Of a stretch of 64,000 nt of DNA, positions 48-60,073 are shown piece by piece (the first letter of the stretch is position 1; each line of letters opens with the position of its first letter). The DNA is from Candidatus Woesearchaeota archaeon. Its GTDB lineage: Archaea > Nanobdellota > Nanobdellia > Pacearchaeales > GW2011-AR1. The DNA lies in assembly GCA_964514585.1 (NCBI GenBank), contig CAZETU010000005.1, positions 1 through 64,000 on the forward strand, written 5' to 3'. The position numbers and the translations under genes are program-made. The notes beneath the pieces were generated by a model. The model was not told the DNA's origin. It did not search any database and saw only the letters and a program-made list of their open reading frames with translations.

Positions 48-138
48 TATTTTTTGAACACACGCACCGGTGTTGGTGAGCAATTCGCTCCGAACAAATA
101 ATTTTAATTATTTTTTGTAAGGTGCAAATTGTAAATAA

Positions 139-163
139 GGTTCAAATCCCCCCGAGGCCATAT
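139..163 (+). repeat. 25-bp exact copy of the tRNA-Lys 3' end (26-50); att-like direct repeat
   Basis: GGTTCAAATCCCCCCGAGGCCATAT at both 26-50 and 139-163. Confidence 0.9.
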
Positions 164-280
164 ATTCTTTAGCGTAAAAAATATCAAGATAACGTACAAG
201 AGTCACGCCTCATGAAATTATCCCTAAAAATTCTGCAAAATTTTCACAAAGAATTTCGCACCAGAGAAATTTTTGATATC

Positions 281-589
281 CTAATTATCAACCCGAACAG
301 TATTCTTGCACTTAACACACTTATAAAATTTCGATTCAGCCTCGTCACCAGATCTCATTTGCTGAATCCAAAAATACGATCTCTTATGCCCACATTTCTT
401 ACAGTCATAATCAGTCATCGGGTTAACTTCACCTTCTTTCTCATTAATAACCGCAACCGTAACCTTCGCATCAATTGCTTCAACAATTTCCATATCAACC
501 TTTCCCTTCGCAACATAATTACATTTAGGGCAACCAGCCTTAGTTTTCTTCATCATTAAAATAGCACCACATTTTGGACAAAATTCCAT
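281..589 (-). CDS. tfs: Transcription factor S (TFS/RpoM family)
   Basis: N-terminal CPKC..CPKC and C-terminal CKKC..CVKC zinc ribbons; QMRSGDE acidic hairpin typical of TFS/TFIIS. Confidence 0.9.
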   Translation of the reverse strand: MEFCPKCGAILMMKKTKAGCPKCNYVAKGKVDMEIVEAIDAKVTVAVINEKEGEVNPMTDYDCKKCGHKRSYFWIQQMRSGDEAESKFYKCVKCKNTVRVDN

Positions 590-631
590 TTTAAATTTAA
601 CAAGCTCGAATTTAAAAACCTTCCCTAAGTC

Positions 632-1210
632 TCAACAAAGCCCTCTTTGACTAGATGTCCGACCAGCCTCAAAAAAAATCAACTTAGCCCACCCAATATA
701 CGGAATCTTAAACAAAGCCTTTCCAATAAGCTGATCCTCAGAAATCTTTTTTTCAGAACTAAGCTGATTATAATTAGTCCTATAATTATCTCCCTTCGTA
801 GCATAAGTTTCATCTACTTCGACAACTCTATGAATTAAAGGATGCGTCGCCCCGCCATTAAAAATTATCACATCACCAACCTCAATATTCTTAGCTCCAA
901 CAACAAAAATCACATCACCCTTACTAAACCCATTCTGAAAAATCCAGTTACCAGTTTCACCTAAAGAAATTCCATAATTCTCATAGACATCACTTTCAAA
1001 AGTTTTTTCAAATCCATCCTCATGATGATACATACTACAACTCTCAACAATCACCAACGGCAAACTCGTCCCAGTCAAAAGCGACAACCCAGGAAAGAAA
1101 ACAAATTTTATCAAAATAAAAGCGATAATCAAAGTAGCAACAAAAGATGACCAACTATCTTCGTGCAAAAAAGCCCAAAATTTCTTCCATCCATCCACAA
1201 CTTCTTTCAT
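632..1210 (-). CDS. Signal peptidase I (archaeal SEC11 type)
   Basis: TM helix then VIVESCSM (catalytic Ser), KGDVIFV, PLIHRV, TKGDN; start moved to MKEVV at 1210. Confidence 0.85.
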   Translation of the reverse strand: MKEVVDGWKKFWAFLHEDSWSSFVATLIIAFILIKFVFFPGLSLLTGTSLPLVIVESCSMYHHEDGFEKTFESDVYENYGISLGETGNWIFQNGFSKGDVIFVVGAKNIEVGDVIIFNGGATHPLIHRVVEVDETYATKGDNYRTNYNQLSSEKKISEDQLIGKALFKIPYIGWAKLIFFEAGRTSSQRGLC

Positions 1211-1302
1211 ATCATCCAAAAACAAATACACTTTATAAGACTTTAGAAGCAGCCAATACAATTACCAAAATATTTATAAAGTATACATCATTATGTATAC
1301 AC

Positions 1303-1785
1303 ATGGAAGATATATTTGATAATATAATTTTATGCAATAAATGCAATAAAAAAATGAAGCCAAGTCTCCTAAGTAGAAACGGCTTCAATCTTCGAATAGT
1401 GAAGTGTGAAAACTGTGGAAAATCAATTATTCATCCAGAAGATAAAAAAGAATACGAAGAATTTGTAAGATTAAAACAAAAAGAATACAATGTCAAAATG
1501 AGAATGGTTGGAAATTCATATGCAGTCTCTATCCCTCGAGAAATCGTAGACTTTATGCAGGAACAAGAAAGCATGATGAATAACATGGTAAAACTTTGTT
1601 TCGAAGAAGCAGGAAAGATAAGACTAGATTTTGATTCAAGCAATTCAAGAGTTGTAAGTTCCGAAGAAGTTAAAGTAGTAAAAAATGGTAAGTCAGTTTA
1701 TCACGTAAGGAAGGTTTCAGATTCAGCAAACCCTGAAAAAAATAAGACTAAAATATATAAAGCAAAAAAAGAGGAAGATTACTAA
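1303..1785 (+). CDS. Zn-ribbon plus AbrB/MazE/SpoVT-type DNA-binding domain protein
   Basis: CNKC..CENC followed by [18 protein letters not shown] (AbrB-like motif); start moved to MEDIF. Confidence 0.7.
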
Positions 1786-4118
1786 TGGCAAAGAAAAAAG
1801 AAGAATCAAGCAAAATAGTAAAATTAAGAGTTGTAGAGGCTCTTCAAGATGACGCATACAAAGGCGTAGCGAGAATAGACGAAGGTATAATGAGAAAATT
1901 AGACCTAGAAAGAGGAGATATTATTTCAATAAAAGGAGACAGAGAAACATACTCTGTAGTCGACAGAGCATACCCCGCAGACATGGGCGAAGAAATTATT
2001 CGAATGGATGGGATCACAAGAAAGAATTCTAAGACAGGAATTGGGGAACAGGTAGAAATCAAAAAAGGAATAATTAAGGAAGCAAAAAAAATTACAATCG
2101 CACCAGCCCAGCAAGGAATCGTTGTCCAAGGAGATCCTGATAATTTCAAGAGAGGACTTCTGGGGAAGCCGGTTACAAAAGGAGACATTGTAGTCATAGG
2201 GGGTTCACAGCGAAGAAAAGACATAATGTCAGACGGATTCGGAGATTTATTCGGTGGAGAAATGGGAGAAATTTTCAATCAAATGGGATTCGGTGGGATG
2301 CCAGGCGGGTTAACTCAAATCAGATTCGCAATTGTTTCAACTGCTCCAAACCAGCCGTGCATAATTACAGAAAACACGGACATAACCCTAAGCTCAAAAG
2401 CAGTTGACATTTCAGAAGAATCAATCCCCCAAATAACCTACGAAGATATCGGTGGCTTAACTGACGAAGTAAAAAAAGTCAGAGAAATGGTAGAGCTTCC
2501 ATTAAAGAGACCAGAAATATTCGCACGATTAGGAATCGAGCCACCAAAAGGAGTCCTACTTTATGGCCCCCCAGGAACAGGTAAAACCTTGCTAGCAAAA
2601 GCCGTAGCAAACGAATCCGAAGCACACTTCATTTTATTAAACGGCCCAGAAATTATGTCAAAGTTCTATGGAGAATCAGAAAAGAAAATAAGAGAAATAT
2701 TCGACGACGCTGAAAAAAATGCACCATCAATTATCTTCATCGACGAAATAGATTCCCTAGCTCCAAAAAGAGAAGACGCCGGTGGGGAAGTAGAAAGAAG
2801 AGTAGTCTCACAATTACTAACAATGATGGACGGTCTTCAGGCTCGAGGTAAAGTCGTAGTCATCGGCGCAACAAACCGACCAAACTCAATCGACCCAGCA
2901 TTAAGACGACCAGGTAGATTCGACAGAGAAGTTGAAATTTCAGTCCCAGACAAAGCAGGCAGATTATCAATTCTAAAAATTCACACAAGAGGAATGCCAT
3001 TAACAAAATCTGTAAACCTAGAAGAGATAGCAAGAAAAACACACGGTTTCGTCGGAGCAGACATAAACTCTCTGGGCAAAGAAGCCGCAATGATTGTCCT
3101 TAGAAAAAATTTACATAAATTTAAACTTGAAGAAGAAAAAGAAATTCCACAAGACGTATTAGAACAACTAAGAGTTTCACAAAAAGATTTCGACGAAGCC
3201 CTAAAAGTTGTAAGACCTTCAGCAATGAGAGAAGTCTTGGTTGAAACTCCAAACACAAAATGGGATGACATCGGCGGCGTAGAAGATGTCAAAAGAGACT
3301 TAAAAGAAGCGGTCGAATGGCCACTAAAATTCCCAGACTCATTTACAAGAATGGGCATCAATCCACCAAAAGGAGTCCTACTCTACGGCCCCCCAGGAAC
3401 AGGTAAAACCTTGCTAGCAAAAGCCGTAGCAAACGAATCCGAAGCAAACTTCATCCAAATCAAAGGACCAAGCTTACTAAGTATGTGGGTCGGGAAATCC
3501 GAAGAAGGAGTAAGAAAAATTTTCGAAAGAGCTAGACAAGTCTCACCCTGTGTAATCTTCTTCGACGAAATAGATTCTCTAGCAGGCAAGCGAGGAGGAG
3601 GAATGGGTAGCGGAGCAAAGGTAACAGAAAACGTTCTAAACCAACTACTAGCAGAAATGGACGGAATCGAAGACTTAACAAACGTAATCGTAATCGGCGC
3701 AACAAACCGACCAGACATCCTAGACCCAGCATTAATGCGACCAGGTAGATTCGACAGAATAGTATACGTCCCAGTCCCAGAAAAAGAAGGCCGAGAAAAA
3801 ATACTTGAAATCCACACAAAGAAAATGAAAGAAAACGGAGTCCTAGACAAATCAGTAGATTTAAGCAAATTAGCAGAAGAAACAGAAGGGTATACCGGAG
3901 CAGATATCGAATCCCTAGTAAGAGAAGCCGCAATGCTAGCCCTCAGAGCAGACATAAACTCAGAAAAAATCACAAAGAAGCATTTCGACAAAGCAATGGA
4001 AAAAGTATTACCTTCCGTTTCGAAAAACGATCAAGAAAGATATAAACAAGTAGAGAAAAGATATCTCAAGAGTGCAAGGGCAGCATTAGCAGACAGCAGC
4101 GCAAGTTACGCAGGTTAA
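1785..4118 (+). CDS. cdc48: CDC48/VAT family AAA+ ATPase
   Basis: N-domain plus two AAA modules, each with GPPGTGKT, FxDEID and RPGRFDR. Confidence 0.97.
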
Positions 4119-4119
4119 A
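4094..4119 (+). repeat. att-like site 1 (3' end of cdc48)
   Basis: CAGCAGCGCAAGTTACGCAGGTTAAA, identical to 13369-13394. Confidence 0.9.
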
Positions 4120-4122
4120 TCT

Positions 4123-7100
4123 TTATTTATCCCCATCATCTAAAATTCTCACAACCCCCTTATCCGCATCAACCTCAACCAAATCTCCCGTCTTCAATGC
4201 CTTAGTAACCGCCCTTACCCCAACCACGCAAGGTATTCTTAATTCCCTACTTGTAATGGATGCATGACAAATCACACCACCATGTTCTGAGATTATTGCA
4301 GAAGATTTTTTCATCGCAGAAATAAAATTCGGAGTAGTAGTAGAAGAAACAATTATTTCTCCCTCTTCAAAATCCTTAACGTCTTCATCATTCTCCACCC
4401 TTCTAACCTTACCCTTAACAATTCCCGGATATGCCGTCTGACCATATAATTCCGTTCCCCCATCATACTCATGCTCCTTAATCACAATATTAAATTTATT
4501 TTCAACCTCCTCAATCGAATCATACATCTCACCATTAGTATAAACAAAACTCTTAAGTCTTTTTTCCAATACTTCATTACTCGGCAAACACCCCCTCTCA
4601 ACGTCCTCAATTAATATCGCATCAACATATTTCTCATGTTCAGGAAATATTTTCTTCAATGATTTCCTAATAACTTCCGGAAACCCCTCAGCCATTTTCT
4701 CAGTCTTTTTTCTAACTTCAAGTATATCATCTAACGGCAAATTATTTTTATCATAATATTCAATCATCCACCACATACAAGTCCACCAAGTCCACCCCGC
4801 TTTCAGCTTATCAATAAACTCTAAAAAATCTTTCCTTGATAACGCCGGTTTCTCGTCTACAATCTTTTTTATATCATCAAAAAATAAAATCGCATTATCT
4901 TTCATTATCTCCTTATCAAACTTTCCAGCTTCATTAATATTCCATTCTATTCCCTCTTTATCATAAAAATAATACAAGGTTTTCCCTCTTTTTTCAAACA
5001 CACAATAAGGACTATATGGAAATTCCTTTTCGCTCCAAGGTACTTCCTTCAAGCTCTCTCCATAGTCTGTCAACTCGGCAATCATCGCAGGAAATTCATG
5101 ATTCATAATATCAGAATATATCGGTTTTTGATTTTTCTCCAATATCCTCACAACCCCCTCATTAGCATCAACCTCAACTAAATCCCCATCCTTCAAAGCG
5201 TTTGTTCCAACCCTAGTGCCAATAATACATGGAATCTCCAACTCTCTAGCTACAATAGCCGCGTGACATACAATGCCTCCCTCGTCAGTAATAATCGCTG
5301 AGGCGTTTTTCATATAAGGAACGTAATCAGGGGAAGTCATTTCTGTGACAATAACTTCCCCTTTCTTAAAATTTGAAAGTTGTTTCTTTGAATGTATTAT
5401 TCTAACTCTTCCCCTTACATTCCCTTTAAATGCCACCTGCCCACTTACAATATTATCACCTTTGTTTTTCACTTCATCCAAAACAAGTTTATTTTCCCCA
5501 AGAATACTATCCAATTCTGACAAAGAATATAATTTCCCGTTATATAATATATATCCATTCTCCCTCTTTTTAATTTCGCTAATTTGTTTTTTCGCTAATT
5601 TTTTATCTTCAAGTGAAAAAATTTCTTCGGGAGTTAATAAATTAGAGAATCTTTCATATTCTGGATAAAGTTTATTGAAATTTTCAATAAAGAATAAATC
5701 ATTTTTATCAGAATATTTTTCCGTTTCAGATCTTATTTTAAGAGCCTCTTTTTTTATTTCTTCAGAAGCTGTCTTAGATTCAGGCAAAACATACATTATT
5801 GCCATTGGCGACCACCATTTTATATAGGTTTGATAATAATCTTTCAAATCCTTTATGCTAGCTATATTTAATTTTCCATCGAAATAATTCATTAATCTAT
5901 TAAAATATTTATAAAATTCTTTTTTGTTGTGGGAAAAATATTTTTTATCCTCAGTGGCTCTCCTCCCAACTCTATCATACATTTCATTTAGCTCCCTACT
6001 TTCAAACCATACGGATGTTTTCCCAAAGCCTTTATTTATGAAAATAAGTTCTTCTATATTGTTAAAAAAATATCCTAAACATTTCTGATTGGATTTGTGC
6101 CAAACATAACAATAGATTAATGAATGCTCTCTAGATTGAAGATTGATCATTCTTTGTTCTTCCTCCAATATCCTCACAACCCCCTCATTAGCATCAACCT
6201 CAACCAAGTCCCCATCTTCCAAAACTTTCGTAGCAACCTTTGTATTAACAATACATGGAAGTTTCTCCTCCCGTGCAATAATCGCAGCATGACAAGTAAT
6301 TCCTCCTTCGTCTGTAACAAAACCAACGGCATTCCTAAAATAAACAACAGACTCAGGACTTGTCATAGGAGTCACAAGAATAAATTTATTTTTTCTCGAT
6401 ATTTCCTCCAATCTCCCCTTATTTTCATAATCGCTAGCCAATAACTTAACAACCTCCCCTTTAACTTTCCCTCCATTCCCAATGTCTCCAATAATTTCAC
6501 CCCTAGAAATACTTTCCTCGACTTTCTTTTTATCTGGATTTTGATTCGTCAAATAAGATCTTATCTCTCTCACTTCTTCACCGGTAACAGTTTTACATTT
6601 CCCATCCATATGAATCCAAGCAATGGGCCGCCCAACAATATAATCAAACTCCGAAACATTCTCCGAGCTATTAACAATTTTAATTATTTCCTCCGTAGTG
6701 GCCCCCTTCGCAATTTTTTCGGGAACCCCATATTTATTCACCAAAGCATCTATCAACTTTTCATAAACTTTCCACAGATAATTCAACGCAAGATCATCCA
6801 ACAACAACCTCGTCTTTTGCAATTGAAATATAAGTGCCTCATCCTTTGTAACAAAAGACTCCTCAATATAAAAATTAAAATGCCAATACATTTCTTGATT
6901 AAGTTTATTCGCCCCCCTCAATGCAACAATATAATTTTCAGGTTTCTCTAAATCTTCATCATTTAATTTCAATATTGCTCCAAACTTTTTCTTCGCCCTC
7001 TTATAAAATTCCCTACTTGCCTCATTAATAATTTTTATCTTATCGCAATCTTCAACTATAGGTCTCTTGCCAGGAACCGTCCACGCCTCATATTCATCAT

Positions 7101-9621
7101 CTTGAAGTATCACCCCCACTTGCTGAGGTTCATAGCCAATTATTTTATAGAGCGGATTATCTTTATATAAACACGAGCTCATATACTCCAATAACAATAC
7201 TGACTGAGGAGGATAAACCACTGACATCTCTAAAGAGCCATATTCCCCCAGTTTTTCAATATCAGAATATATCGGTTTTTGATTTTTCTCCAATATCCTC
7301 ACAACCCCCTCATTAGCATCAACCTCAACTAAATCCCCATCCTTCAAAATCTTTGTCGCGTTTTTAGTTCCAATTACACAAGGTTTTTTCAACTCTCTAG
7401 CAATTATCGCTGCATGACAAGTAATTCCTCCCTCATCTGTAACAATAGCAGAAGCCTTTTTTATTGAAGACATAAATTCTGGCGAAGTCATTTCAGTCAC
7501 AAGAATTTCCCCATTTTTAATATCTAAATGATCCTCAGATTTAACAATTAACTTTACAATTCCTCGAATTTTACCAAAGTAAGCCGAATTTCCCTTAATT
7601 TTTTGAAAATCACTTATGGTATCAGGTTTTTCTAGCTCTAAGTTATTTTTATTAAGTTCATTTTCCAAATCCTCAAGCAGAATCAATTTACTATTAACCA
7701 GAGCACATCCATTTAATCTTTTATTAAACATCTCCAAATTATCTTTCAAGAATGGCTTCTTTCTTAGTGAAAAAACCTCATCAGGCAAAATCACATTAAC
7801 ATATTTTTTATATTGAGGATATTTTTCAGAAAAAAAGTCTATAAAAATCTTATTAAAAAGCTGAGGAAAATGCTGAGTTTTCTCTCTAATTCCCATCATT
7901 TCGTTTTTTATTTCCTCCGCAACACCTTCCATCTCAGGAACACTCATAGAAAAATCCACTAAATGCCACCAATCCAACCAATCCATATAAATATTTTCTA
8001 ATTCATTTAAACTTTTGATTCTTTTTTTGTTCTCAAGATAAGGCGAAAATTCCTTTATCCCATCAAGATATCTTTTTTTAAGCAACTTGTAATATCTCTT
8101 ATATTTTAATTTTTTTTCAAGTTTTGAATATACAATATTTAATTCATCTTGATGGTACCAACTAGTAAATCTACTTAGCGAATCCGATATTAAGACCAAA
8201 TTTTTTACACTATCTGGCCATATTTTTTTAGAATTTTCTATATCAGATTTATTCCATGCATACACATAAAACAAACTTCTTTCCCGAGTATTAGTTTTTG
8301 AAAGAATAATTTTTTGATTTTTCTCCAATATTCTAACAACCCCTTCGTCCGCATCTACTTCTACTTCGTCGCCGTCTTTAAGAAATTCTGTAGCAATCTT
8401 TGTTCCGATTACACAGGGCTTGTTAAGCTCCCTTGAAATAATCGCTGCATGACATGCGATTCCTCCTTCATCAGTAATAATCGCAGAACATTTCTTTAAT
8501 GCTGGTACAAAATCTGGACTTGTCATTTCAGTTACAATAATATCTCCCTCTTTGATGATATCTAAATCTTTTTTATCTAGAATAACTTTAATAGTTCCTT
8601 TTACAATCCCCTTACAGGCTATTGATCCCTTGAGTTTCTTGCTACTTAAGGGCTTAATTCTTTCAAGCATCAAATTTTCTTCTTCTAATAAGTTATCTAA
8701 TTCACTATATTTTCCAAATTTATCATTAATCATTACATAGCCAGAGTCTTTTCGGTCGTTGAATAGTTTTAATTCTTCTTTGGTGTAAGCTCTATTTTCT
8801 AGTACAAACAATTCATTAGGAAGAATATATCGTGATAGCTCACTATACTGTGGAAAGTTTGATTCAAAGTACTCTAAGAATAATTCGTCAAATATATCAG
8901 CATAGTCTTGAGTTTCTTCTCTCAACTTAAGTACCTTTTTGAGCATTTCTTTTGGGGGACTTTCCATGTCTGGAACAAACATAGCAAATGACATAGGAGA
9001 CCAAAATCCCATAAGCGCAGAATAATATTCTTTAAGGTCAGAAATATTCTCAATTTTTCTAGTTTTTTCTACGAAAGGTCTTAGTTTATCAAAACTATCT
9101 TTAAAGACATAAACAACTCTTTCAAACAATGAATTATCTAAAAGAAGAGCTTTTTCAAAAGAATCACTTGCAAAATCAACTTCTTTATTATTGTGCCATA
9201 TTGCTGTTTTAAACGTTTTGGGTTTTTTGATGACCACAACAGTTTTTATTGGAGGCCATTCTGGAAAATCAGGATGTCCATTTCGATTATCGTCACTTTC
9301 AATTTGATAATAAAATAATGAATGTTCTCTTGAATAAAACTTAGATACTACTTTCTTTTTCTCAGAATCATTTTTTTTGCTCAAAGTAGTAATCGGCCTC
9401 GATTGCACAATATAAAATTTATCACCCTCCTTGGCCCATTCAATATCGCAAGGAAACCCATAGTGATCCTCAATTCTTTTAACCAACTTAGCCAATTCAA
9501 CAATCTCATCATTACTCAAGACCTGACCCTTCCCAATTTCTTCCAAATCTCTCCAATCATTTCCACCGCCTTCAGCCCTAAACAATCCCCTACTCTGCTC
9601 ATTAACACTCAAATCAATCAC
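4123..9621 (-). CDS. Giant PEP-utilising-family protein: end of ATP-grasp (PPDK_N) domain plus five tandem [helical domain + phosphohistidine swivel] modules; in frame with 9631-10317
   Basis: DIEWA..FYIVQSRPITTL (end of PPDK_N); five GGxxCHA(A/S)IxxRE..PC motifs; no PEP/pyruvate TIM-barrel domain. Confidence 0.85.
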   Translation of the reverse strand: MIDLSVNEQSRGLFRAEGGGNDWRDLEEIGKGQVLSNDEIVELAKLVKRIEDHYGFPCDIEWAKEGDKFYIVQSRPITTLSKKNDSEKKKVVSKFYSREHSLFYYQIESDDNRNGHPDFPEWPPIKTVVVIKKPKTFKTAIWHNNKEVDFASDSFEKALLLDNSLFERVVYVFKDSFDKLRPFVEKTRKIENISDLKEYYSALMGFWSPMSFAMFVPDMESPPKEMLKKVLKLREETQDYADIFDELFLEYFESNFPQYSELSRYILPNELFVLENRAYTKEELKLFNDRKDSGYVMINDKFGKYSELDNLLEEENLMLERIKPLSSKKLKGSIACKGIVKGTIKVILDKKDLDIIKEGDIIVTEMTSPDFVPALKKCSAIITDEGGIACHAAIISRELNKPCVIGTKIATEFLKDGDEVEVDADEGVVRILEKNQKIILSKTNTRERSLFYVYAWNKSDIENSKKIWPDSVKNLVLISDSLSRFTSWYHQDELNIVYSKLEKKLKYKRYYKLLKKRYLDGIKEFSPYLENKKRIKSLNELENIYMDWLDWWHLVDFSMSVPEMEGVAEEIKNEMMGIREKTQHFPQLFNKIFIDFFSEKYPQYKKYVNVILPDEVFSLRKKPFLKDNLEMFNKRLNGCALVNSKLILLEDLENELNKNNLELEKPDTISDFQKIKGNSAYFGKIRGIVKLIVKSEDHLDIKNGEILVTEMTSPEFMSSIKKASAIVTDEGGITCHAAIIARELKKPCVIGTKNATKILKDGDLVEVDANEGVVRILEKNQKPIYSDIEKLGEYGSLEMSVVYPPQSVLLLEYMSSCLYKDNPLYKIIGYEPQQVGVILQDDEYEAWTVPGKRPIVEDCDKIKIINEASREFYKRAKKKFGAILKLNDEDLEKPENYIVALRGANKLNQEMYWHFNFYIEESFVTKDEALIFQLQKTRLLLDDLALNYLWKVYEKLIDALVNKYGVPEKIAKGATTEEIIKIVNSSENVSEFDYIVGRPIAWIHMDGKCKTVTGEEVREIRSYLTNQNPDKKKVEESISRGEIIGDIGNGGKVKGEVVKLLASDYENKGRLEEISRKNKFILVTPMTSPESVVYFRNAVGFVTDEGGITCHAAIIAREEKLPCIVNTKVATKVLEDGDLVEVDANEGVVRILEEEQRMINLQSREHSLIYCYVWHKSNQKCLGYFFNNIEELIFINKGFGKTSVWFESRELNEMYDRVGRRATEDKKYFSHNKKEFYKYFNRLMNYFDGKLNIASIKDLKDYYQTYIKWWSPMAIMYVLPESKTASEEIKKEALKIRSETEKYSDKNDLFFIENFNKLYPEYERFSNLLTPEEIFSLEDKKLAKKQISEIKKRENGYILYNGKLYSLSELDSILGENKLVLDEVKNKGDNIVSGQVAFKGNVRGRVRIIHSKKQLSNFKKGEVIVTEMTSPDYVPYMKNASAIITDEGGIVCHAAIVARELEIPCIIGTRVGTNALKDGDLVEVDANEGVVRILEKNQKPIYSDIMNHEFPAMIAELTDYGESLKEVPWSEKEFPYSPYCVFEKRGKTLYYFYDKEGIEWNINEAGKFDKEIMKDNAILFFDDIKKIVDEKPALSRKDFLEFIDKLKAGWTWWTCMWWMIEYYDKNNLPLDDILEVRKKTEKMAEGFPEVIRKSLKKIFPEHEKYVDAILIEDVERGCLPSNEVLEKRLKSFVYTNGEMYDSIEEVENKFNIVIKEHEYDGGTELYGQTAYPGIVKGKVRRVENDEDVKDFEEGEIIVSSTTTPNFISAMKKSSAIISEHGGVICHASITSRELRIPCVVGVRAVTKALKTGDLVEVDADKGVVRILDDGDK
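5107..5197. repeat. 91-bp exact intragenic repeat at a module junction (copy at 7258-7348; partial copy at about 6163-6223)
   Basis: Both copies encode LKDGDLVEVDANEGVVRILEKNQKPIYSDI with identical nucleotides. Confidence 0.9.
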
Positions 9622-9630
9622 ATGCCAATC

Positions 9631-10317
9631 CTACTTATCAACAACATAGCTATCCGGCGTAATCTGCCCAGAAACTATCGCCTCGCCAAGCCCAAATCCA
9701 GCCTCAATAATAATATGATTAGGATCCTCCGTCACAGGATGAACAGAAAACGCAATTCCAGACTCCTCACTCTCAACCATCTTCTGGACAACAACCGCAA
9801 CAGAAATATCAGTCCCACAAAGTCCCTTCTCAAACCTGTAAAAAATCGCCCGAGGCGTAAAAAGACTAGCCCAACACCTCTTCACATTCTCCAAAATTTT
9901 TTTCTTATTCGTATTAAGATAACTATCCAGTTGCCCAGCCCAAGCCGCAGCAGCCGAATCTTCACTAGTTGCACTAGATCTTACCGCAACAAATTCACAA
10001 TCAAGATCATTATAACCTTCCAAAACACCCTCCCCAATGTCTTCAGGCAGCTCCTTACTCAAAATCATCGCCTGAATTTTCTCAGAAGCATCCTCGACTG
10101 TATGAACTTTTTCAATATCAACATTATCCAGAACCGCATCAACCTCAACATTCAAACCAGTCTCCTCAATAAACCTATCAAAAGCTCCAGAAAGAACAAC
10201 AAACCCACCAGGAACGGGAATCCCCGCCTGAGTCATTTCCCCCAACGAAGCACCTTTCCCTCCAGCTATATCAACATCATTCTTCGAAATAGAATCAAAT
10301 CTATTAATATAATTCAT
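9631..10317 (-). CDS. N-terminal part of PPDK/PEP-synthase nucleotide-binding (ATP-grasp) domain, ending at an in-frame TAG
   Basis: GGKGASLGEM, VAVRSSATSEDS, WAGQLDSYLN, VVVQKMV, GLGEAIVSGQITPD. Confidence 0.9.
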   Translation of the reverse strand: MNYINRFDSISKNDVDIAGGKGASLGEMTQAGIPVPGGFVVLSGAFDRFIEETGLNVEVDAVLDNVDIEKVHTVEDASEKIQAMILSKELPEDIGEGVLEGYNDLDCEFVAVRSSATSEDSAAAAWAGQLDSYLNTNKKKILENVKRCWASLFTPRAIFYRFEKGLCGTDISVAVVVQKMVESEESGIAFSVHPVTEDPNHIIIEAGFGLGEAIVSGQITPDSYVVDK

Positions 10318-10396
10318 AAAAACATCAAGTATTCATAATTTAAAAATAATTGCATAATATCGCCCATCAACAAAAGCATTCTTTTCCCAATTAACA

Positions 10397-10413
10397 CAAG
10401 TTACGCAGGTTAA
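10397..10413 (+). repeat. att-like site 2 (17-bp core of cdc48 3' end)
   Basis: CAAGTTACGCAGGTTAA, within a 7-bp inverted repeat AATTAAC-N13-GTTAATT (10389-10415). Confidence 0.8.
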
Positions 10414-10443
10414 TTTTATATAGATCTTTTATCTCAATAAAAC

Positions 10444-10889
10444 ATGGTGATATTCTACGAAACAAAAAACTTCATAGTTGAAGCCCACGACAATCCCCAT
10501 ATTACCAGAACTGACGGAGGGCATATTAAAATTACCCCAAAGAAACCTGTTGAAAATCGGTGGCAACTAAAACCAAGAGAAGCAACAGAATTAATGAAAC
10601 TCTCTATGCTTATTGGAGAGGCTATGAAAAAGGCATTAAACAAACGAGGAATTCCTGTAGAAAGAATAAATTTTCAAGAAAATGGTAATTGGCCATTCAA
10701 ACAAAACAAGACGTTGCCGTTACACCTACATCTTTACGGACGTGCAAAAATTCTAAATATCAAAAAAGAGGCGAAGCATTATATTTCCCCACAGAAGGTT
10801 CAAAATATTACAAAAAATTAAAGCCACTCAATAAAGAAGATATAAAAGAAATATTAAAGCAAATAAAAATAATTTCTAAAAGAAAATAA
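10444..10889 (+). pseudogene. HIT-family protein, frameshifted near 10745-10750
   Basis: HITRTDGGHIKI and LHLHLYGR motifs; the C-terminus (NSKYQKRGEALYFP..) continues in another frame after an A5 run. Confidence 0.7.
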
Positions 10890-10918
10890 TCAAATCATCA
10901 TACATTACAAGTTACAAC

Positions 10919-11665
10919 CTAATCATCAGGACAACTATCCCACATAAATTGAAAGAATTTTCTATAACCATCGGCTAATGCCTTGGATTTCATAACAAAC
11001 ATCAACGGCTCATCATAAAGTTCTCCAGGCTTAACCCCAACAAAAGTAACCACATAAGGACCAAATATATCAACAGCAGTAGAGCTAGAATATTTCTTAG
11101 GCATAAATTTGTAAGGCTTCCCCGCCAATTTTAATATCTCCGGCTTTTCCTCCTTTATTTCATGATCAAATAAATGCTTAAACTTAATTCCCTTCGCCTT
11201 CCTATCTCTTTCAAACATTGGCAAAAAATGCTTCAATCTTTCATCCAACCAAAAAGCCTTAGCTCCAATAAAATAAACCGTTTCCCCAGTATCAATAATA
11301 TCTTTAAGGTAATTCTTAAACCCCTCAATCCCTCTATAAAAATAAGCCTCTTCTTTTGCCTGCGTTATCGAAAACTTACTCTCCATTTCAGGAATTTTTT
11401 CATTTATCTTTTCTTCTTTTTCTTTTATCAACTCCAATAGTCGTCGAGGATTTACCGCTTTAAACCTTTTTTCTCCTTTAATAAATATCTCCGAAGCAAG
11501 ACCTTTCTCTATCAACTTACTCAAGGAATCATAAACATTTCTCCTATGAACCCCCGACCTATTTGATATCGACTGAACAGATACTTCCCCAACTTTCAAT
11601 AAGGTTTCGTATACTTTTGCCTCATTGCTACTTAAGCCCGCCTCTTTCAATGTTTCTTCATACAT
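10919..11665 (-). CDS. TrmB-family transcriptional regulator
   Basis: GLSSNEAKVYETLL..SGVHRRNVYDSLSKLIEKGL wHTH plus C-terminal effector-type domain. Confidence 0.85.
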   Translation of the reverse strand: MYEETLKEAGLSSNEAKVYETLLKVGEVSVQSISNRSGVHRRNVYDSLSKLIEKGLASEIFIKGEKRFKAVNPRRLLELIKEKEEKINEKIPEMESKFSITQAKEEAYFYRGIEGFKNYLKDIIDTGETVYFIGAKAFWLDERLKHFLPMFERDRKAKGIKFKHLFDHEIKEEKPEILKLAGKPYKFMPKKYSSSTAVDIFGPYVVTFVGVKPGELYDEPLMFVMKSKALADGYRKFFQFMWDSCPDD

Positions 11666-11758
11666 AAAATTACAAACAAAGCCCCACTTAAAAATATTTC
11701 TATTGTGGTGGCAATAACCACCGCCATCCCTTATAAGAAAGTAATAATGTAATAATAT

Positions 11759-11938
11759 ATGGAAAACAAAAAATCCAATAGGAAAGAATGGAGTAGATTA
11801 GATTCAATCTCCTTTAGGGGAGAAAGAGAAGTCTGGAATAAATTTCTTTCAGTCATAAAAAGAAAAGGAAAAAAGAACGCCTGGGAAGTATTGGGCAAAC
11901 TTGTTCAAGAATATCTAAAGATAGGAGCCAAAGAATAA
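11759..11938 (+). CDS. Small ribbon-helix-helix-like protein (59 aa, absent from ORF track)
   Basis: Hand translation MENKK..SISFRGEREVWNKFLSVIKRKGKKNAWEVLGKLVQEYLKIGAKE; stop abuts the SSS start codon. Confidence 0.55.
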   Translation: MENKKSNRKEWSRLDSISFRGEREVWNKFLSVIKRKGKKNAWEVLGKLVQEYLKIGAKE

Positions 11939-13363
11939 ATGGCATTTATATCACAATCAGCAGGCTATTGGTTTTTACTAATATTTGGACTAGTAATGAT
12001 ATTAGTCACATATTTTTTTAGTAGAAGGAAAAAGTCTTCCACAAAAGAAGGATTCTTAGTCGCAGGGAGAAAAGTCGGATGGTTTCTCGGAGGTTCAAGC
12101 ATAGCAGCTTCTTGGATTTGGGCACCAGCTCTTTTCGTCTCAGTTCAACTAGCTTATCAAAAAGGCTTGGCGGGAATTTTCTGGTTTACAGTTCCTAATA
12201 TATTCGCCTTAGCCATATTCGCATTCCTAGCTCCAACAATCAGGAAAAAAATGCCAGAGGGATATACCTTACCACAATACATCAAATATAAACTCAACAG
12301 CGAGAAAGCCCACAAAGTCTACCTCTTCCCCTACCTCTTCTACCAACTCATGGCAGTCACCGTCCAAATCTTTGCAGGAGGAAGCTTAATTTATTTACTA
12401 ACTGGTATACCCTTAATTATAGTCATGCCAATACTTTTAGTCATAGCCCTAGCATATACATATATCTCCGGGCTCGAAGCATCAATCATAACAGACTTTG
12501 TACAAATGACACTAATCTTCATAATAGGATTAATAATTCTTCCACTAACATGGTCTGCAGCAGGAGGCTTCTCAGCAATAACCGCAGGCTTAGGTGGGCT
12601 ATCAGGAATCAAAAATGTATTCGACCCAGGAATTGCATTCTCACTAGGAATAGTAACCTCAATAGGTTTAATCTCTGGAGCTATTTCAGACCAGCAATAT
12701 TGGCAAAGAGCATTTTCAATAAAAAAAGGACATTTATCAAAAGCATTCATATTCGGAGCAATCCTATTCGAAATAGTCCCAATCGCATTATCCACTTTAG
12801 GATTTTTAGGAGCAAACCCCGCTCTAGGGATCACCCTCCCAGAAGGAGTTGACGCCTCAATGATTGGAGTCCAAACAGTTGCTACATTACTACCCACTTG
12901 GGCAGTATTCTTATTCGTAATAATGTTACTAGCAGGATTGAGCTCAACTTTAGATTCAGGATTATCAGCCACAAGCTCATTATGGGTAACAGACGTCACC
13001 AAACCAAAAACAGACAAAGAAGCAATCAGCTCAGCAAGAAAAGCAATGTTCGGAGTTTCTATTCTAGGACTATTAGTAGCACTAGCGGTTGTTTACATTC
13101 CGCAATTCGGGCTCTTCCATTTATGGTGGATATTCAATACAATAGCTGCCTGCGTCGTCATTCCTACAATACTAAGTCTATACTGGAACAGATTAAGCGC
13201 AAAAGGAGTTTTGTACGGCGTCCTAATAGCATTCTTCGTAGGACTACCCCTATTCATCTACGGAAACATAATCGCAAATGATTTTTGGATCGTAGGCTCG
13301 TCATTATTCATAATCGCAGTAAGTACCCCATTCTGCTTATTGATACCTAAAAATAATTTCTAA
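11939..13363 (+). CDS. Sodium:solute symporter (SSS), DUR3/urea-transporter-like
   Basis: About 13 TM segments; FLVAGR, ASWIWA, GLEASIITDFVQ, DQQYWQRAF, SSTLDS motifs. Confidence 0.85.
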   Translation: MAFISQSAGYWFLLIFGLVMILVTYFFSRRKKSSTKEGFLVAGRKVGWFLGGSSIAASWIWAPALFVSVQLAYQKGLAGIFWFTVPNIFALAIFAFLAPTIRKKMPEGYTLPQYIKYKLNSEKAHKVYLFPYLFYQLMAVTVQIFAGGSLIYLLTGIPLIIVMPILLVIALAYTYISGLEASIITDFVQMTLIFIIGLIILPLTWSAAGGFSAITAGLGGLSGIKNVFDPGIAFSLGIVTSIGLISGAISDQQYWQRAFSIKKGHLSKAFIFGAILFEIVPIALSTLGFLGANPALGITLPEGVDASMIGVQTVATLLPTWAVFLFVIMLLAGLSSTLDSGLSATSSLWVTDVTKPKTDKEAISSARKAMFGVSILGLLVALAVVYIPQFGLFHLWWIFNTIAACVVIPTILSLYWNRLSAKGVLYGVLIAFFVGLPLFIYGNIIANDFWIVGSSLFIIAVSTPFCLLIPKNNF

Positions 13364-13368
13364 AAAAG

Positions 13369-13394
13369 CAGCAGCGCAAGTTACGCAGGTTAAA
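13369..13394 (+). repeat. att-like site 3 (26-bp copy of cdc48 3' end)
   Basis: Exact match to 4094-4119. Confidence 0.9.
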
Positions 13395-13446
13395 GAGTAG
13401 ACGCCCCAACCACAACGACTGGAGATGTGTGTCTTTGGTGGGCGGA

Positions 13447-14391
13447 TTATTTAGGGATAAACTTCATAAAGTCTTCAAGAGTAAATTTATCAAGTCTCAT
13501 TACAACTTCAGAGTTTCTTTTTATACCTTTTTTCATACTAGGAGTTTCTTTTGGATGACTCTTTAAGTGTTCTATATACCAAGACAATATTCCAAAAAGT
13601 CTGTATTTCGCTAGGTAATAAATTGCTTTTCTCTCTTCATTATTTAACGCGAAGTATTTTGAATATTCTTTTAGGAATATTTTAGCCTTCATTCTTTGAA
13701 TTCTTTTTCTAGATAAGTAAAAATGTGCAATAAAGATTGCTGTATCATAGGCAATATAATCATAATCACTATCATCAAAATCTATTATGGATATTAGTTT
13801 CTTATTTTTTACCAACATGTTACCTTCACTAAGGTCTGAATGAATATATGAACTTCTTAATTTACTAAAGTTTAGCCCATTTAAATTTTTCAAAAGTTCA
13901 TTATATATTCCTTGAATTTTTTCTCCATCCTTTATGCTCTTAAAACTTCTTTTTTTATAAGAATGAGATTTATTTCCTTTAGAATATTTAGATTTTACCA
14001 GAGTTGAATGTAACTTCCCTATTTGTTTTCCCATTTCAATTGAGAGAGGGATCCCCATATCTTGTGCACTTTTTCCTTCAATGTATCTTTGAATGATATA
14101 ATATTTCTTACGGTAAGGTATTAATTCATTTCCCTTCTTATTTTTGATATTTTTTGCTACGGGGATTTTCTTAGAGTATAAGAAGTCAATATATTCTAAT
14201 TGGTTCAAATATGAATTTTTATTAATTTTTTTATTAATTTTTATTATATATTTACCTGTTGATGTATTTAGAATATACATATGATTATCATAAACTCCCT
14301 TCATATATGAATGAGATTTATACCTCCCTATTTTATAATTAGAGAGAATATCTACTATCTCTTTTCTGTTTAATTTTGAAAAAATCACCAT
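13447..14391 (-). CDS. APH / homoserine-kinase type II-like phosphotransferase
   Basis: YIIKIN, IGKLH, IHSDLSEGNML (HxDxxxxN) and IIDFDD motifs. Confidence 0.85.
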   Translation of the reverse strand: MVIFSKLNRKEIVDILSNYKIGRYKSHSYMKGVYDNHMYILNTSTGKYIIKINKKINKNSYLNQLEYIDFLYSKKIPVAKNIKNKKGNELIPYRKKYYIIQRYIEGKSAQDMGIPLSIEMGKQIGKLHSTLVKSKYSKGNKSHSYKKRSFKSIKDGEKIQGIYNELLKNLNGLNFSKLRSSYIHSDLSEGNMLVKNKKLISIIDFDDSDYDYIAYDTAIFIAHFYLSRKRIQRMKAKIFLKEYSKYFALNNEERKAIYYLAKYRLFGILSWYIEHLKSHPKETPSMKKGIKRNSEVVMRLDKFTLEDFMKFIPK

Positions 14392-14529: not shown

Positions 14530-15438
14530 TTATCCCCCAGTAGTATTAACAACCTCTCCACCAGAAACAACAAAAGTATTCTCTTCCTGACTAACCGGCG
14601 CCTTACTCTTCTCAATCAACATCGGATAATGATGAAGTATACCCTGCTTAACCAATATAGCCAAAACAAATTTCAATTTACTAAATCCCTCTTTCACCAA
14701 CCACCTCAAACAAAACGGCCGCGTCTTATACTTATCCTTAATAAATTTCAAAACTGCGCGAGCGTCCCTATCACGAACATTATCATCACTCTGCAAAACA
14801 TAAATCCCACCTTCCTTTCCCTCATAAATATCCCCATCCCCCGTCGTCACAAACGGCTCAATCGCAAAAGCCATATCATCCAATTTTGTCTTATTATCAT
14901 TCCTATAATTAGAAATCGTCAACCCAGCATGAATCTGATCCTGTCCCAAAGTATGTCCCGACAAACTCTTAATCACAGCAAAAGAAGAACCATTCTTAGA
15001 ATTCCATTTCTCCAAAACATCCTGAACAGCATCGCCAATCTCACAAATTTCAAACCCAGGTTTAATCACACCAGTAGCCCTAGCCAACATCTCCTTATTC
15101 AATCCAATCATTTCCTTAAATTTCCCATCTCCAGTCAAGTCAATCGAAAAAGCCGTATCAGCAATAAACCCATCAACAGCAACCCCAACATCAACCTTAA
15201 GTATACCCTCGGCCACAGTTTCATCCCCAGGCACAGGAGTATAATGCGCAGCAATTTCATTCAAACTCAAGTTCACAGGAAACGCCGGTTCACCTCCAAG
15301 CTCCAAAATCTTCGCGTCAACTGCCTCAGCCACATCAATCAACTTAACCCCAGGATTAACAATACCCCGAACAAAATCCTTGATATCTCTAGCAATTTTC
15401 CCAGCCTTAATATACGAATTAACTTCATTCTGTTGCAT
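14530..15438 (-). CDS. map: Methionine aminopeptidase type II
   Basis: AFPVNLSLNEIAAHYTP, KVDVGVAVDGFIADTAFS, SGH, AIEPF, QEENT. Confidence 0.95.
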   Translation of the reverse strand: MQQNEVNSYIKAGKIARDIKDFVRGIVNPGVKLIDVAEAVDAKILELGGEPAFPVNLSLNEIAAHYTPVPGDETVAEGILKVDVGVAVDGFIADTAFSIDLTGDGKFKEMIGLNKEMLARATGVIKPGFEICEIGDAVQDVLEKWNSKNGSSFAVIKSLSGHTLGQDQIHAGLTISNYRNDNKTKLDDMAFAIEPFVTTGDGDIYEGKEGGIYVLQSDDNVRDRDARAVLKFIKDKYKTRPFCLRWLVKEGFSKLKFVLAILVKQGILHHYPMLIEKSKAPVSQEENTFVVSGGEVVNTTGG

Positions 15439-18580: not shown

Positions 18581-19590
18581 TCATCCACCTCCCTTTCTTC
18601 CTCGCTAACCTTCCTAATCTTTGCAACAAAAAATCCATCAGTATTATTGTCCTGAGGATACAGCCTCAAGCATTTTTTACACTCCCCACTAAATTCCTTA
18701 TCTTCCCACTTAACCACACCCTCACGAAATTTCAAAGGCAACTTAATCTGCTCAACCTCAACATCAAAATTCTTAATCAAGTGATCAACCACCATCTCGT
18801 CCTCTTCTGGCGCCAAAGTACAAGTTGAATAAATCATCTCACCACCAACCTTCAAAAGTTTCATAGCAGCCTCGACCAACTTCCTCTGAGTCGATGCAAT
18901 TTTCTTAACCATATTCACATTCCACATCTGAAAAGTCCTAGGGCTTTTCCTCAACGTCCCCTCTCCAGAACACGGCGCATCAACCAAAATTTTATCAAAC
19001 TTCACCTGAGATTTTTTCAACAACCTCTCACAAAGCGCGACCCCTTCCTTCCGCGTCACAATCGTATTCATAACCCCACACCTCTCCAAATTAGAATTCA
19101 GTATACCAATCCTCCCCATGTTCATCTCATTCGCAATAATCGTCCCACCATTCTCCATCATAGCAGCAGCCTGCGTCGTCTTACTCCCCGGACTCGCACA
19201 TAAATCCAAAACCATCTCCTCAGCTTTCGGCTTCAAAACCAACATCGGCAACATCGAACTAATTTCCTGAACATAATAATACCCAAGCAAATGCTCCTTC
19301 GTCTTCCCCAACTCACCAGGATTCAACTTCGACTCAATAACCATCACCTCAGGAAATTCCTCAAACGGCTGCCGCAACTTCCACCCATAGCCCTCAAGTC
19401 TAGACTTCAATTCATCAACAGAAATTTTCAAAGTATTGCATCTAATTGAAATAGGCGTCGGCGTATAAGAAATCTCAAAAAATTCTTTAGCACCATCTTT
19501 GCCCAACAAAACTTCCATCCTCTGAACAAACCCTTCCTTCGGCGGAAATTTCTCTTTCAAATATTCAGAATAATCCTTTCTCTTATCCAT
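18556..19590 (-). CDS. RsmB/NOP2-family RNA m5C methyltransferase
   Basis: YYVQEISSM, DLCASPGSKT, DAPCSGEG, YSTCT; start moved to MDKRK. Confidence 0.93.
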   Translation of the reverse strand: MDKRKDYSEYLKEKFPPKEGFVQRMEVLLGKDGAKEFFEISYTPTPISIRCNTLKISVDELKSRLEGYGWKLRQPFEEFPEVMVIESKLNPGELGKTKEHLLGYYYVQEISSMLPMLVLKPKAEEMVLDLCASPGSKTTQAAAMMENGGTIIANEMNMGRIGILNSNLERCGVMNTIVTRKEGVALCERLLKKSQVKFDKILVDAPCSGEGTLRKSPRTFQMWNVNMVKKIASTQRKLVEAAMKLLKVGGEMIYSTCTLAPEEDEMVVDHLIKNFDVEVEQIKLPLKFREGVVKWEDKEFSGECKKCLRLYPQDNNTDGFFVAKIRKVSEEEREVDEWKKKGKK

Positions 19591-30962: not shown

Positions 30963-31628
30963 TTTAAAAGTTTGCCGCATCAAGAAATCTCCCTAGTTTA
31001 GTGGGGAGATGAATTGTGCTTCTAGTTGGCAAACTTTTGTCTTGGAAAATTATTTATTCTAGAAAGTATTAAAGAAAATAGGAAGTTAATCCTACTTTCT
31101 CGAATGTAAACGTAGTTGTAACTTTCTGAAACTAAATAAACTTATCGGAGATTAAAATGAAATTTGAAACACGTAGCTACGCACATGCCGTCGGGGAATT
31201 CAACTACCACATCCAATTGACAGTTGCTTACCGACGAGAGATTTTCTCAAACGAGAAAGTTTTGAGATTGACAAGAGCTTATCTCGTCGAGAAATTGAAA
31301 GAAATTAATGTCGAACTCGTTTGCTTAGAATTTGGTCCAGAGCATGTTCACCTTTTTGTGACGAACTGTAAAAATTATGCGCCTTGTCAGATTGTGCAAT
31401 TTTTGAAAGGTTTCTCGTCGAGAATGATGTGAAAGAATCACTTGGAACTCTTCAGGAATTTTCTTTGGGGCAAAAAGTTTTGGAGCGAAGGTTATTTTGC
31501 TAGGAGTATTGGATGTGTCACGACGGAGCGAGTTCGGTATTATATCGAAGATTCGCAAGGGAAGCATTGGGATTAGGTTTGGAAATTAGCTGGTCACGCT
31601 CCGGACTTCAGTCCGGGGTAGTTGACAA
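30963..31628 (+). mobile_element. IS200/IS605-family element (tnpA only), copy 1
   Basis: 666 bp shared with 59408-60073; subterminal hairpins ATCTCCC..GGGAGAT and CCGGACT..AGTCCGG-GGTAGTTGAC. Confidence 0.9.
31157..31576 (+). pseudogene. tnpA: IS200 Y1 transposase TnpA with in-frame TGA (31430-31432)
   Basis: HUH motif EHVHLF; frame continues after the TGA through FWSEGYF..YYIEDSQ (catalytic Tyr). Confidence 0.88.
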
Positions 31629-59407: not shown

Positions 59408-60073
59408 TTTAAAAGTTTGCCGCATCAAGAAATCTCCCTAGTTTAGTGGGGAGATGAATTGTGCTTCTAGTTGGCAAACTTTTGTCTTGGAAAATTATTT
59501 ATTCTAGAAAGTATTAAAGAAAATAGGAAGTTAATCCTACTTTCTCGAATGTAAACGTAGTTGTAACTTTCTGAAACTAAATAAACTTATCGGAGATTAA
59601 AATGAAATTTGAAACACGTAGCTACGCACATGCCGTCGGGGAATTCAACTACCACATCCAATTGACAGTTGCTTACCGACGAGAGATTTTCTCAAACGAG
59701 AAAGTTTTGAGATTGACAAGAGCTTATCTCGTCGAGAAATTGAAAGAAATTAATGTCGAACTCGTTTGCTTAGAATTTGGTCCAGAGCATGTTCACCTTT
59801 TTGTGACGAACTGTAAAAATTATGCGCCTTGTCAGATTGTGCAATTTTTGAAAGGTTTCTCGTCGAGAATGATGTGAAAGAATCACTTGGAACTCTTCAG
59901 GAATTTTCTTTGGGGCAAAAAGTTTTGGAGCGAAGGTTATTTTGCTAGGAGTATTGGATGTGTCACGACGGAGCGAGTTCGGTATTATATCGAAGATTCG
60001 CAAGGGAAGCATTGGGATTAGGTTTGGAAATTAGCTGGTCACGCTCCGGACTTTAGTCCGGGGTAGTTGACAA
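59408..60073 (+). mobile_element. IS200/IS605-family element (tnpA only), copy 2
   Basis: Essentially identical to 30963-31628; one difference noticed in the right hairpin loop. Confidence 0.9.
59602..60021 (+). pseudogene. tnpA: IS200 TnpA with the same in-frame TGA (59875-59877)
   Basis: Same translation as copy 1. Confidence 0.88.

Follow-up and report, generated by a model that had tools for sequence, protein, structure and literature searches.

DNA recombined at least twice into the 3' end of cdc48 in a DPANN archaeon, at one of five gene-end scars in its genome

The window analysed here is a 64,000-nucleotide stretch of DNA from a Candidatus Woesearchaeota archaeon (contig CAZETU010000005.1, referred to below as C5). 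It contains a cdc48 gene whose last bases recur twice downstream, with two units of accessory genes stacked between the copies. On at least two occasions, incoming DNA that brought its own copy of the gene end underwent conservative recombination with the cdc48 end; as the initial annotation of the window had proposed, insertion occurred exactly at the gene end, and the stop codon was re-formed on each occasion. Scars of this type are usual where DNA has recombined into a gene end, and the locus is one of five in the genome. The tail-repeat signature is peculiar to this strain, and the 9.3 kb between the outer copies are strain-specific. We favour, with about even confidence, recombinase-mediated conservative integration that left decayed or non-autonomous remains resembling the cis-mobilizable elements (CIMEs) of bacteria. 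The assembly (GCA_964514585.1; 1.04 Mb, 18 contigs, 89.65% complete) represents a DPANN-type archaeon that occurs in salt-lake metagenomes.

The cdc48 end is present in three copies

The sequence was read directly, and the 26-mer CAGCAGCGCAAGTTACGCAGGTTAAA was found to be identical at 4094-4119 and 13369-13394, while its 17-bp core CAAGTTACGCAGGTTAA is present at 10397-10413. The features of the locus are as follows:

1785..4118, + strand: cdc48, the target gene, 777 aa; CDC48_N, CDC48_2 and two AAA domains (Pfam)
4094..4119, + strand: gene-proximal 26-bp copy, attL-like; last 7 codons, TAA and 1 nt
4120..10396, - strand: unit 1, phosphotransferase-like gene (Pfam)
10397..10413, + strand: middle copy, 17-bp core, attM; within a 7-nt inverted repeat (10389-10415)
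10414..13368, both strands: unit 2, with HIT, TrmB, a 59-aa open reading frame (ORF) and an SSF symporter (Pfam)
13369..13394, + strand: distal 26-bp copy, attR-like; in frame after the symporter stop codon
13401..13445, + strand: tRNA-Asp-type attachment core (11/12 match) and the shared sequence following it
13447..14391, - strand: APH-type kinase gene (Pfam), GC 0.28
14530..15438, - strand: M24 peptidase gene, convergent with cdc48; conserved far border of the slot between the two genes

The cdc48 gene ends in GCA AGT TAC GCA GGT TAA (C-terminus ...SASYAG*), and the TAA stop is retained in all three copies of the repeat. A pattern search of the window allowing up to 2 mismatches returned three matches, compared to 0.00 expected from 100 shuffles. 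The exact recurrence of the 26 bp and the position of the core, both taken from the initial annotation, were thereby reproduced. The same applies to the inverted repeat around the middle copy, AATTAAC-N13-GTTAATT (10389-10415). A 7-nt terminal inverted repeat of this kind is found in 0.03% of the 27-mers of this genome. Five of the seven bases of the right dyad arm belong to the shared core, and the middle copy is the only one located in a 7-nt dyad. Translated, the sequence upstream of the middle copy resembles Cdc48 C-termini no better than do shuffled versions of the same peptide. Outside the genome, the 17-mer had no match in viral contigs, and its 18 matches in species-representative genomes, all bacterial, equal the chance expectation.

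The junctions were compared with four sequencing runs in the form of assembled contigs (Logan; X1, X7, X10 and X13, of which X1 is possibly the source sample). The copy at 4094-4119 was spanned without mismatch by contigs of X1 and X10, the middle copy by contigs of X1, X7 and X13, and the distal copy by contigs of X1, X10 and X13. Each copy was covered by contigs of at least two runs, and the depth in X1 was even. Since independent contigs from four runs span the copies, the repeats are not assembly joins, an eventuality that the initial annotation had left open. Neither an empty-site allele (the cdc48 tail followed directly by AGAGTAGACGCC, that is, 4119 joined to 13395) nor a circle junction of either unit was present in the contigs of the four runs, from which rare excision products could be missing, rare forms being dropped in contigs. 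Joints with short sides (∼21 nt) in the run contigs were disregarded as the usual ends of assembly pieces.

The stacked units carry accessory genes and no recombinase

Unit 1 is composed of a single minus-strand gene (4123-10317, ∼2060 codons), in which a PPDK_N (ATP-grasp) domain at 9631-10317 is followed by an in-frame TAG and then by a frame of 1832 aa (4123-9621) containing five PEP-utilizer modules (Pfam). A PEP-utilizer phospho-histidine domain is present in each of the tandem modules, between which exact repeats reach 91 nt. The TAG at 9631-9633 splits the gene, the 5.5 kb downstream of it being still open, and no read variant was seen at this position. The corresponding codon specifies E or Q in the homologues of genome G008, the only genome in which multi-module phosphotransferase homologues were found; one of these is followed by EF-1alpha. 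The TAG represents either a very recent nonsense mutation, or a site of read-through or re-initiation. A symporter homologue in genome G010 likewise holds one internal TAG.

Unit 2 contains four genes:

10444-10821, + strand: HIT (Pfam)
10919-11665, - strand: TrmB (Pfam)
11759-11938, + strand: 59-aa ORF, no family match
11939-13363, + strand: SSF symporter (Pfam)

The two tandem units described in the initial annotation stand as regards their extents and the giant phosphotransferase, HIT, TrmB and symporter genes; its ribbon-helix-helix label had been given to the 59-aa ORF, for which no family match was found.

TrmB, the small ORF and the SSF gene also occur together in genome G051, with 69-81% identity (76% for the symporter orthologue), among other neighbours and with no tail-like sequence, and an SSF orthologue of 85% identity is found alone in another genus. 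Scans of viral contigs with the symporter and TrmB identified no relative, and PHROGs gave nothing usable for the cargo or for the small inserted ORFs described below. In a tetranucleotide composition test, both units were typical of the genome. As the cargo consists of rare accessory genes that occur elsewhere in other contexts and is native in composition, its donors were probably close kin. These are wandering accessory genes, and no conserved element carrying them was found.

No integrase gene is present among all ORFs of the two units (Pfam), and a search of contig C5 with PF00589 and PF00239 (tyrosine and serine recombinases) gave no match, in agreement with the initial annotation. The only recombination-type genes on C5 encode two IS200-type Y1 transposases at 31 and 59 kb, distant from the cdc48 locus. 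They lie in exact 646-bp copies of an IS200-type element (30963-31608 and 59408-60053), and both transposase frames (31193-31552 and 59638-59997) have an in-frame TGA.

The slot between cdc48 and the M24 gene is a site of gene turnover

The cdc48 loci of relatives were examined in 15 genus genomes and 80 metagenome contigs (95 loci in total; the nearest contig of the metagenome scan was 91% identical, and the same strain was absent among the contigs returned). The cdc48 orthologues within the genus are 72-90% identical, and in most of the 95 loci the Cdc48 tail is of the S/T-Y-x-G* type. The gene order g209 - up212 - cdc48, followed by the convergent M24 peptidase gene, g168 and g358, is conserved. 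M24 was found convergent with cdc48 in 11 of the 15 genus loci and in 53 of the 80 metagenome loci, many of the others ending too early.

The gap between these two genes ranges from 2 bp to ∼8 kb, and its content is variable across the genus and the order. The slot is nearly empty in G011 (9 bp), in G010 (101 bp) and in six metagenome loci (2-45 bp), where the empty site is established by gene order, since divergence of the intergenic DNA precludes base-by-base alignment. It is occupied by GrpE-DnaK-DnaJ in four genomes (G013, G004, G007 and G002; L033, L034, L041, L045), by a cdc48 paralogue in four others (G001, G015, G003 and G012) and by a 214-aa ORF in G005; in G016 a cdc48 paralogue adjoins cdc48 and the contig stops before M24. 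Because the content changes between conserved convergent genes, the slot is a real site of gene turnover. The survey of relatives that the initial annotation had suggested showed different content behind cdc48, but no repeat of the tail. Neither the cargo genes nor the APH gene were found next to cdc48 in any of the 95 loci, and the sole recombinase near the slot is xerA, located 6-11 kb away in three of them.

In five relatives (L036, L038, L039, L040, L044) the paralogue, ∼50% identical, lies directly behind cdc48 and is preceded by an ORF of 119-130 aa. Such a paralogue was not found in the assembly studied here.

The same scar occurs at four other core genes

The 874 ORFs of the genome were scanned for repeats of their last 32 nt. 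Beyond cdc48, four cases were clear of the chance level, giving five scars in the genome:

C3:43954-45237: NiFe-hydrogenase-like gene; 25 nt exact; the insert holds a 122-aa ORF
C2:116345-117340: Kae1; 20 nt exact; the insert holds a 198-aa ORF
C2:46177-48066: FttA; 41/44 nt; the insert holds a 156-aa ORF
C1:298201-299295: aRF1; 27/30 nt; 85 nt between the copies

In these four cases (L202-L205) the second copy lies 115-740 nt downstream, and the bracketed ORF is an orphan on the opposite strand. No recombinase was recognised in the four brackets.

In all five tails, identity extends to the stop codon, or one base past it, and no further. Two of the genes, FttA and aRF1, have diverged copies, and all six substitutions between them are synonymous changes at third positions; both copies of each encode the same peptide. 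The distal FttA copy ends in AGA TAA, as in relatives. Differences that are exclusively synonymous would be expected if one copy derived from another functional allele and arrived with incoming DNA, but not from the neutral decay of an in-place duplication. Comparison of the FttA insert with an empty site gave no match, the relatives having no shared DNA or genes past the stop codon within the 1.5 kb read.

The hexamer AGGTTA is present in three of the five duplicated tails (Cdc48, Kae1 and FttA), whereas of 873 gene tails only 1.9% contain it (p = 7e-5, or about 0.014 after correction for the 191 words tried). Such an enrichment points to sequence-directed rather than general recombination, and in this small sample it may be taken as a hint of a sequence preference.

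Recombinases and tRNA-targeting elements elsewhere in the genome

The initial annotation had suggested that tyrosine recombinases should be sought elsewhere in the genome, and at least nine such genes were found. The genome also carries clear attachment scars at tRNA-Asp and tRNA-Lys, and a core of the tRNA-Asp type is present at the cdc48 slot. At 9 bases after the distal repeat copy is the sequence ACGCCCCAACCA, an 11/12 match to a core derived from the 3' end of tRNA-Asp. Read in reverse complement, this core (the 12-mer ACGCCCCAACCG) gives the tRNA-Asp(GTC) 3' end. It occurs ∼100 times in 38 of 49 genus genomes, compared to a single occurrence of the reversed control, often clustered in one orientation, and three contigs start exactly with it. 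A divergent family of tyrosine integrases (388-430 aa), with four homologues in this genome, has a member 45-215 nt from a core in at least 17 genus genomes, and an intact tRNA-Asp adjoins the core in the copies examined. To judge from these sequence features, the cores are attachment scars of a tRNA-Asp-targeting element family. Apart from the tRNA-Asp core, no direct repeats were found beside the extra integrase genes.

The sequence after the core at 13401 (GACTGGAGA...GGTGGG) also follows the core in G037, in G008 and at C3:95812. Left of 13417, contigs of X7 and X13 are near-identical to the C3 flank between the integrase gene and the core, which indicates that integrase-bearing elements do visit this slot. 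The piece at 13401-14391 lacks an integrase in this strain and is probably a remnant of a tRNA-Asp-targeting element. Its APH gene, a third strain-specific piece of the slot, is atypical in composition (tetranucleotide distance at the 96.6th percentile); its homologues, found in 12 of 400 family genomes, do not exceed 36% identity. We do not claim APH as a bounded cassette, its flanks being weakly alike (score 23, compared to a shuffle maximum of 24). The motif ACGCCCCAACC, considered as an integron-like attC or a regulatory RNA, gave nothing in Rfam and is the tRNA-Asp 3' end.

Further cores lie on C3 at 88317, 94224, 95812, 96715, 99928, 106206 and 125703 (+ strand) and at 19060, 20866 and 21856 (- strand), and on C9 at 3803 and 6730 (L172-L191). 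Those on C3 form same-orientation arrays, and no intact tRNA-Asp is assembled in this genome. Between two of the cores, at C3:90557-94158 (L152), are dnaK, dnaJ and a presumed grpE (a 191-aa ORF just upstream). This operon fills the slot in four relatives and lies between cores here, and it therefore behaves as movable cargo in the genus.

Other traces of mobile DNA were also observed. The window begins within a tRNA (1-47; anticodon loop CTT, Lys), whose last 25-28 nt are repeated 113 nt further on (139-166), forming an attachment scar with almost nothing between the copies. At a contig end, C9:10640-11957, an integrase gene lies beside a tRNA (anticodon loop TTC, Glu), and an identical 29-nt tRNA 5' part terminates contigs C5 and C7; judging by these ends, an integrated element at tRNA-Glu probably breaks the assembly at C9, C5 and C7. 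The 3.5-kb contig C16 is filled by three tandem tyrosine recombinase genes (88-3335; L008, L010) and resembles a recombinase-in-trio. The ends of contig C12 (L156; 4491 bp) overlap by 55 bp, which indicates that it is probably a circle of 4436 bp; its seven ORFs all lie on one strand, and it may be a small plasmid or virus. A 45-nt element composed of the palindromes AAAATTCTGCAGAATTTT and GATTTTTTCACCAGAAAAAATG is present in four copies on C1 (107970, 126289, 202943 and 318869), one of them 600 bp from xerA, with a partial copy at 217-254 of the window.

How the DNA may have entered the cdc48 end

According to the explanation that we prefer, the segment 4120-13368 would have entered in two or more events, by conservative recombination inside the terminal 17-26 bp of cdc48. 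Every incoming molecule would have brought its own copy of the gene end, which would leave cdc48 whole and push the other tail copy outward, giving the order attL - unit 1 - attM - unit 2 - attR. The recombination was most likely site-specific, performed by a tyrosine recombinase that was lost from the units or was never inside them; its identity, the order of the events and any present mobility are what we infer from the architecture of the locus. The units would be integrase-less remains or non-autonomous riders, stacked by accretion in the manner of bacterial CIMEs. In a separate third event, the piece of a tRNA-Asp-targeting element (core, adjoining sequence and APH gene) would have been added 9 bp further on. 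This reading is favoured by the standard architecture, by the recombinases and scars of the genome, including the scar 9 bp away, by the AGGTTA hexamer, and by the dyad at the middle site. Published precedents, set out below, also speak for it.

Several observations weigh against it. In the whole 1.04-Mb genome there is no further copy of the repeat with fewer than 2 mismatches (two matches with 2 mismatches were taken as chance), and a blastn-short search of the genome with the three sites gave no additional copy; a second site was thus not found. Beyond its 17-bp core the middle copy bears no trace of a cdc48 allele. Coding sequence reaches within 3-5 nt of the outer copies, which leaves no room there for arm-type sites. 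The units have no hallmark gene of a mobile element (Pfam, PHROGs). Among the 95 related loci, none has a repeat of its own cdc48 tail, and none has an integrase adjoining the slot or, the xerA of three loci apart, within 10 kb downstream of cdc48. It should be noted that AGGTTA was spotted post hoc, in five cases only.

The DNA might instead have entered through general recombination of the host, independent of any integrase, via 17-44 bp of homology to DNA of a related strain, which we regard as possible but rather unlikely. The substrate would be either a circle that had looped out between two tail copies or a linear molecule with one end anchored in cdc48 and the other joined illegitimately, and any conserved gene end would be a possible landing site. 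Such a process would explain the missing integrase, as all five brackets are without recombinase or mobile-element genes, and it agrees with the involvement of five different conserved genes, the native composition of the cargo, and the lack of an integrase-bearing relative at cdc48 among the 95 loci. It also accounts for identity ending at the stop codon, where two alleles of a gene cease resembling each other, and for substitutions that are synonymous only, as between two functional alleles. However, a stretch of 17-26 bp is very little for homologous recombination to act on, identity of the middle copy is confined to 17 bp, with unrelated flanks, and general recombination should show no sequence preference such as that suggested by AGGTTA in three of the five tails. 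The 7-nt dyad at the middle site argues against it as well.

The initial annotation had gone further than site-specific integration, and proposed that the units are cassettes moved by an integrase supplied in trans. In a form extended to all five loci, integrase-less units would be moved in trans and stacked in an integron-like manner behind conserved genes, either by the integrase family of the genus or by the chromosomal XerA, as for integrative mobile elements exploiting Xer (IMEX). The structure as such fits decayed or non-autonomous integrated DNA equally well as a cassette system. Five integrase-less brackets in one 1-Mb genome, three of them with AGGTTA, together with the dyad at the middle site and the many recombinases encoded in trans, are what such a system might be expected to leave. 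Nevertheless, a second occurrence of the same unit was not found, those homologues of the cargo genes that could be found have other surroundings and no such repeats, and the units are multi-gene and occupy both strands, unlike cassettes. The 7 + 13 + 7 arrangement of the dyad also differs from the 11-6-11 layout of dif (PMC8371274). The survey speaks against a dedicated cassette system at the cdc48 tail, with tail repeat, cargo or adjacent integrase in none of 95 loci, and there is no evidence of the units moving as such. Trans-mobilisation of cassettes is therefore not demonstrated, and we consider it improbable.

We are similarly doubtful of the broader proposition that DPANN archaea possess an undescribed, sequence-directed mode of gene capture, in which integrase-less units would be placed, and could be stacked, behind essential genes at an AGGTTA-type site. 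That a recombinase encoded elsewhere, possibly of the chromosomal Xer type, would copy or carry the last codons of the gene strikes us as unlikely, and the same reserve applies to Cdc48, FttA, Kae1, aRF1 and the hydrogenase being its target genes, receiving units of one to few genes.

Target-site duplication by a transposon- or casposon-like insertion with long staggered cuts would also flank an insert with direct repeats of its target, and tandem stacking is known for casposons at the 3' end of a protein gene, aEF-2 (PMC6563490). Reading of the sequence, however, revealed no terminal inverted repeats at the unit ends, no transposase or Cas1 was found (Pfam), and the repeat lengths vary (17, 20, 25, 26, 30 and 44 nt). 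Differences restricted to synonymous positions are again not expected of an in-place duplication, and this origin is highly improbable. Finally, chance similarity or an assembly artefact, for which only the origin of the sequence as a metagenome-assembled genome could be invoked, can be set aside in view of the 0.00 chance matches expected and the evenly covered contigs of four runs that span the junctions.

Comparison with known systems

The closest parallel to the recombinase-mediated integration that we prefer is found in Streptococcus thermophilus, where the 3' end of fda is a site of CIMEs and of tandem accretion, described together with ICESt1 and ICESt3 (Pavlovic 2004 and Bellanger 2011, reviewed in PMC5704250). 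Like the cdc48 units, CIMEs lie at the 3' end of a protein-coding gene that is restored, are integrase-less DNA with attL and attR as their borders, and are arranged in tandem with a shared internal site. An autonomous relative with its cognate integrase is known for these CIMEs, and their excision and mobilisation have been shown (PMC5704250). In contrast, the cdc48 units, which reside in a DPANN host, have neither a cognate element or integrase that could be found nor any remnant of element genes. The CIME pattern of retained attL and attR with loss of the integration and transfer genes is seen at the cdc48 locus, but no autonomous element for the same site was found in the 95 loci or in the genome itself, and the units are therefore not CIMEs in the strict sense.

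Of 68 thaumarchaeal integrated elements, 14 occupy the 3' end of a protein gene, and tandem arrays also occur (PMC6563490). These elements share with the cdc48 units an archaeal host, a short att site at a protein-gene end, a new stop codon and tandem re-use of the site. They belong to recognisable classes (proviruses, casposons, integrative-conjugative elements), whereas the cdc48 units carry no hallmark gene of this kind; nor did we see cdc48 reported there as a target. Several integrated archaeal elements encode no integrase, which was presumably lost after integration, and tandem integration occurs (PMC8371274). Those elements are recognisable as plasmids or viruses, while the cdc48 units contain accessory metabolic and regulatory genes only. 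The features of elements integrated by tyrosine recombinases, namely flanking repeats at a gene 3' end and an unoccupied site in relatives, are found at the cdc48 locus; those of casposons and transposons (terminal inverted repeats, a transposase or Cas1, and a fixed duplication length) are not.

Integrons stack cargo without recombinase genes of its own at one site, by means of IntI, attI and the attC palindromes. Ghaly et al. are said to have reported archaeal integrons in 2022. The stacking of unrelated cargo at one site and the lack of a recombinase within the units are common to integrons and the cdc48 locus. The latter, however, has neither IntI/attI nor attC palindromes, its units comprise 1-4 genes on both strands, and its site is the end of a host gene.

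IMEX are integrase-less elements that use the Xer recombinases of the host at dif and form tandem arrays at one site. They resemble the cdc48 units in being integrase-less DNA and in their tandem arrays, and would share with them the use of a recombinase encoded elsewhere. They differ in that the cdc48 site is a gene end, with a 7 + 13 + 7 structure whose palindromic bases are the outer ones, and in that the tail varies between species, unlike dif. The dif layout used for this comparison (11 + 6 + 11) was taken from PMC8371274 and may not be that of this host.

Implications for gene acquisition in DPANN archaea

Little is known of how DPANN archaea, with their tiny genomes and their dependence on hosts, acquire accessory genes. 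The cdc48 locus shows where new genes land in such a genome, namely behind essential conserved genes whose ends are rebuilt. The same genome also holds classical tRNA-targeting integrase elements with cargo of housekeeping type (the DnaK operon). There is a moderate chance that the pattern seen at several loci hides something new. Should the integrase-less units be mobile in their own right, gene capture would have a further, new route; otherwise the locus illustrates clearly, in an archaeon, how integrated DNA decays and accretes, which would be useful for the annotation of islands in metagenome-assembled genomes.

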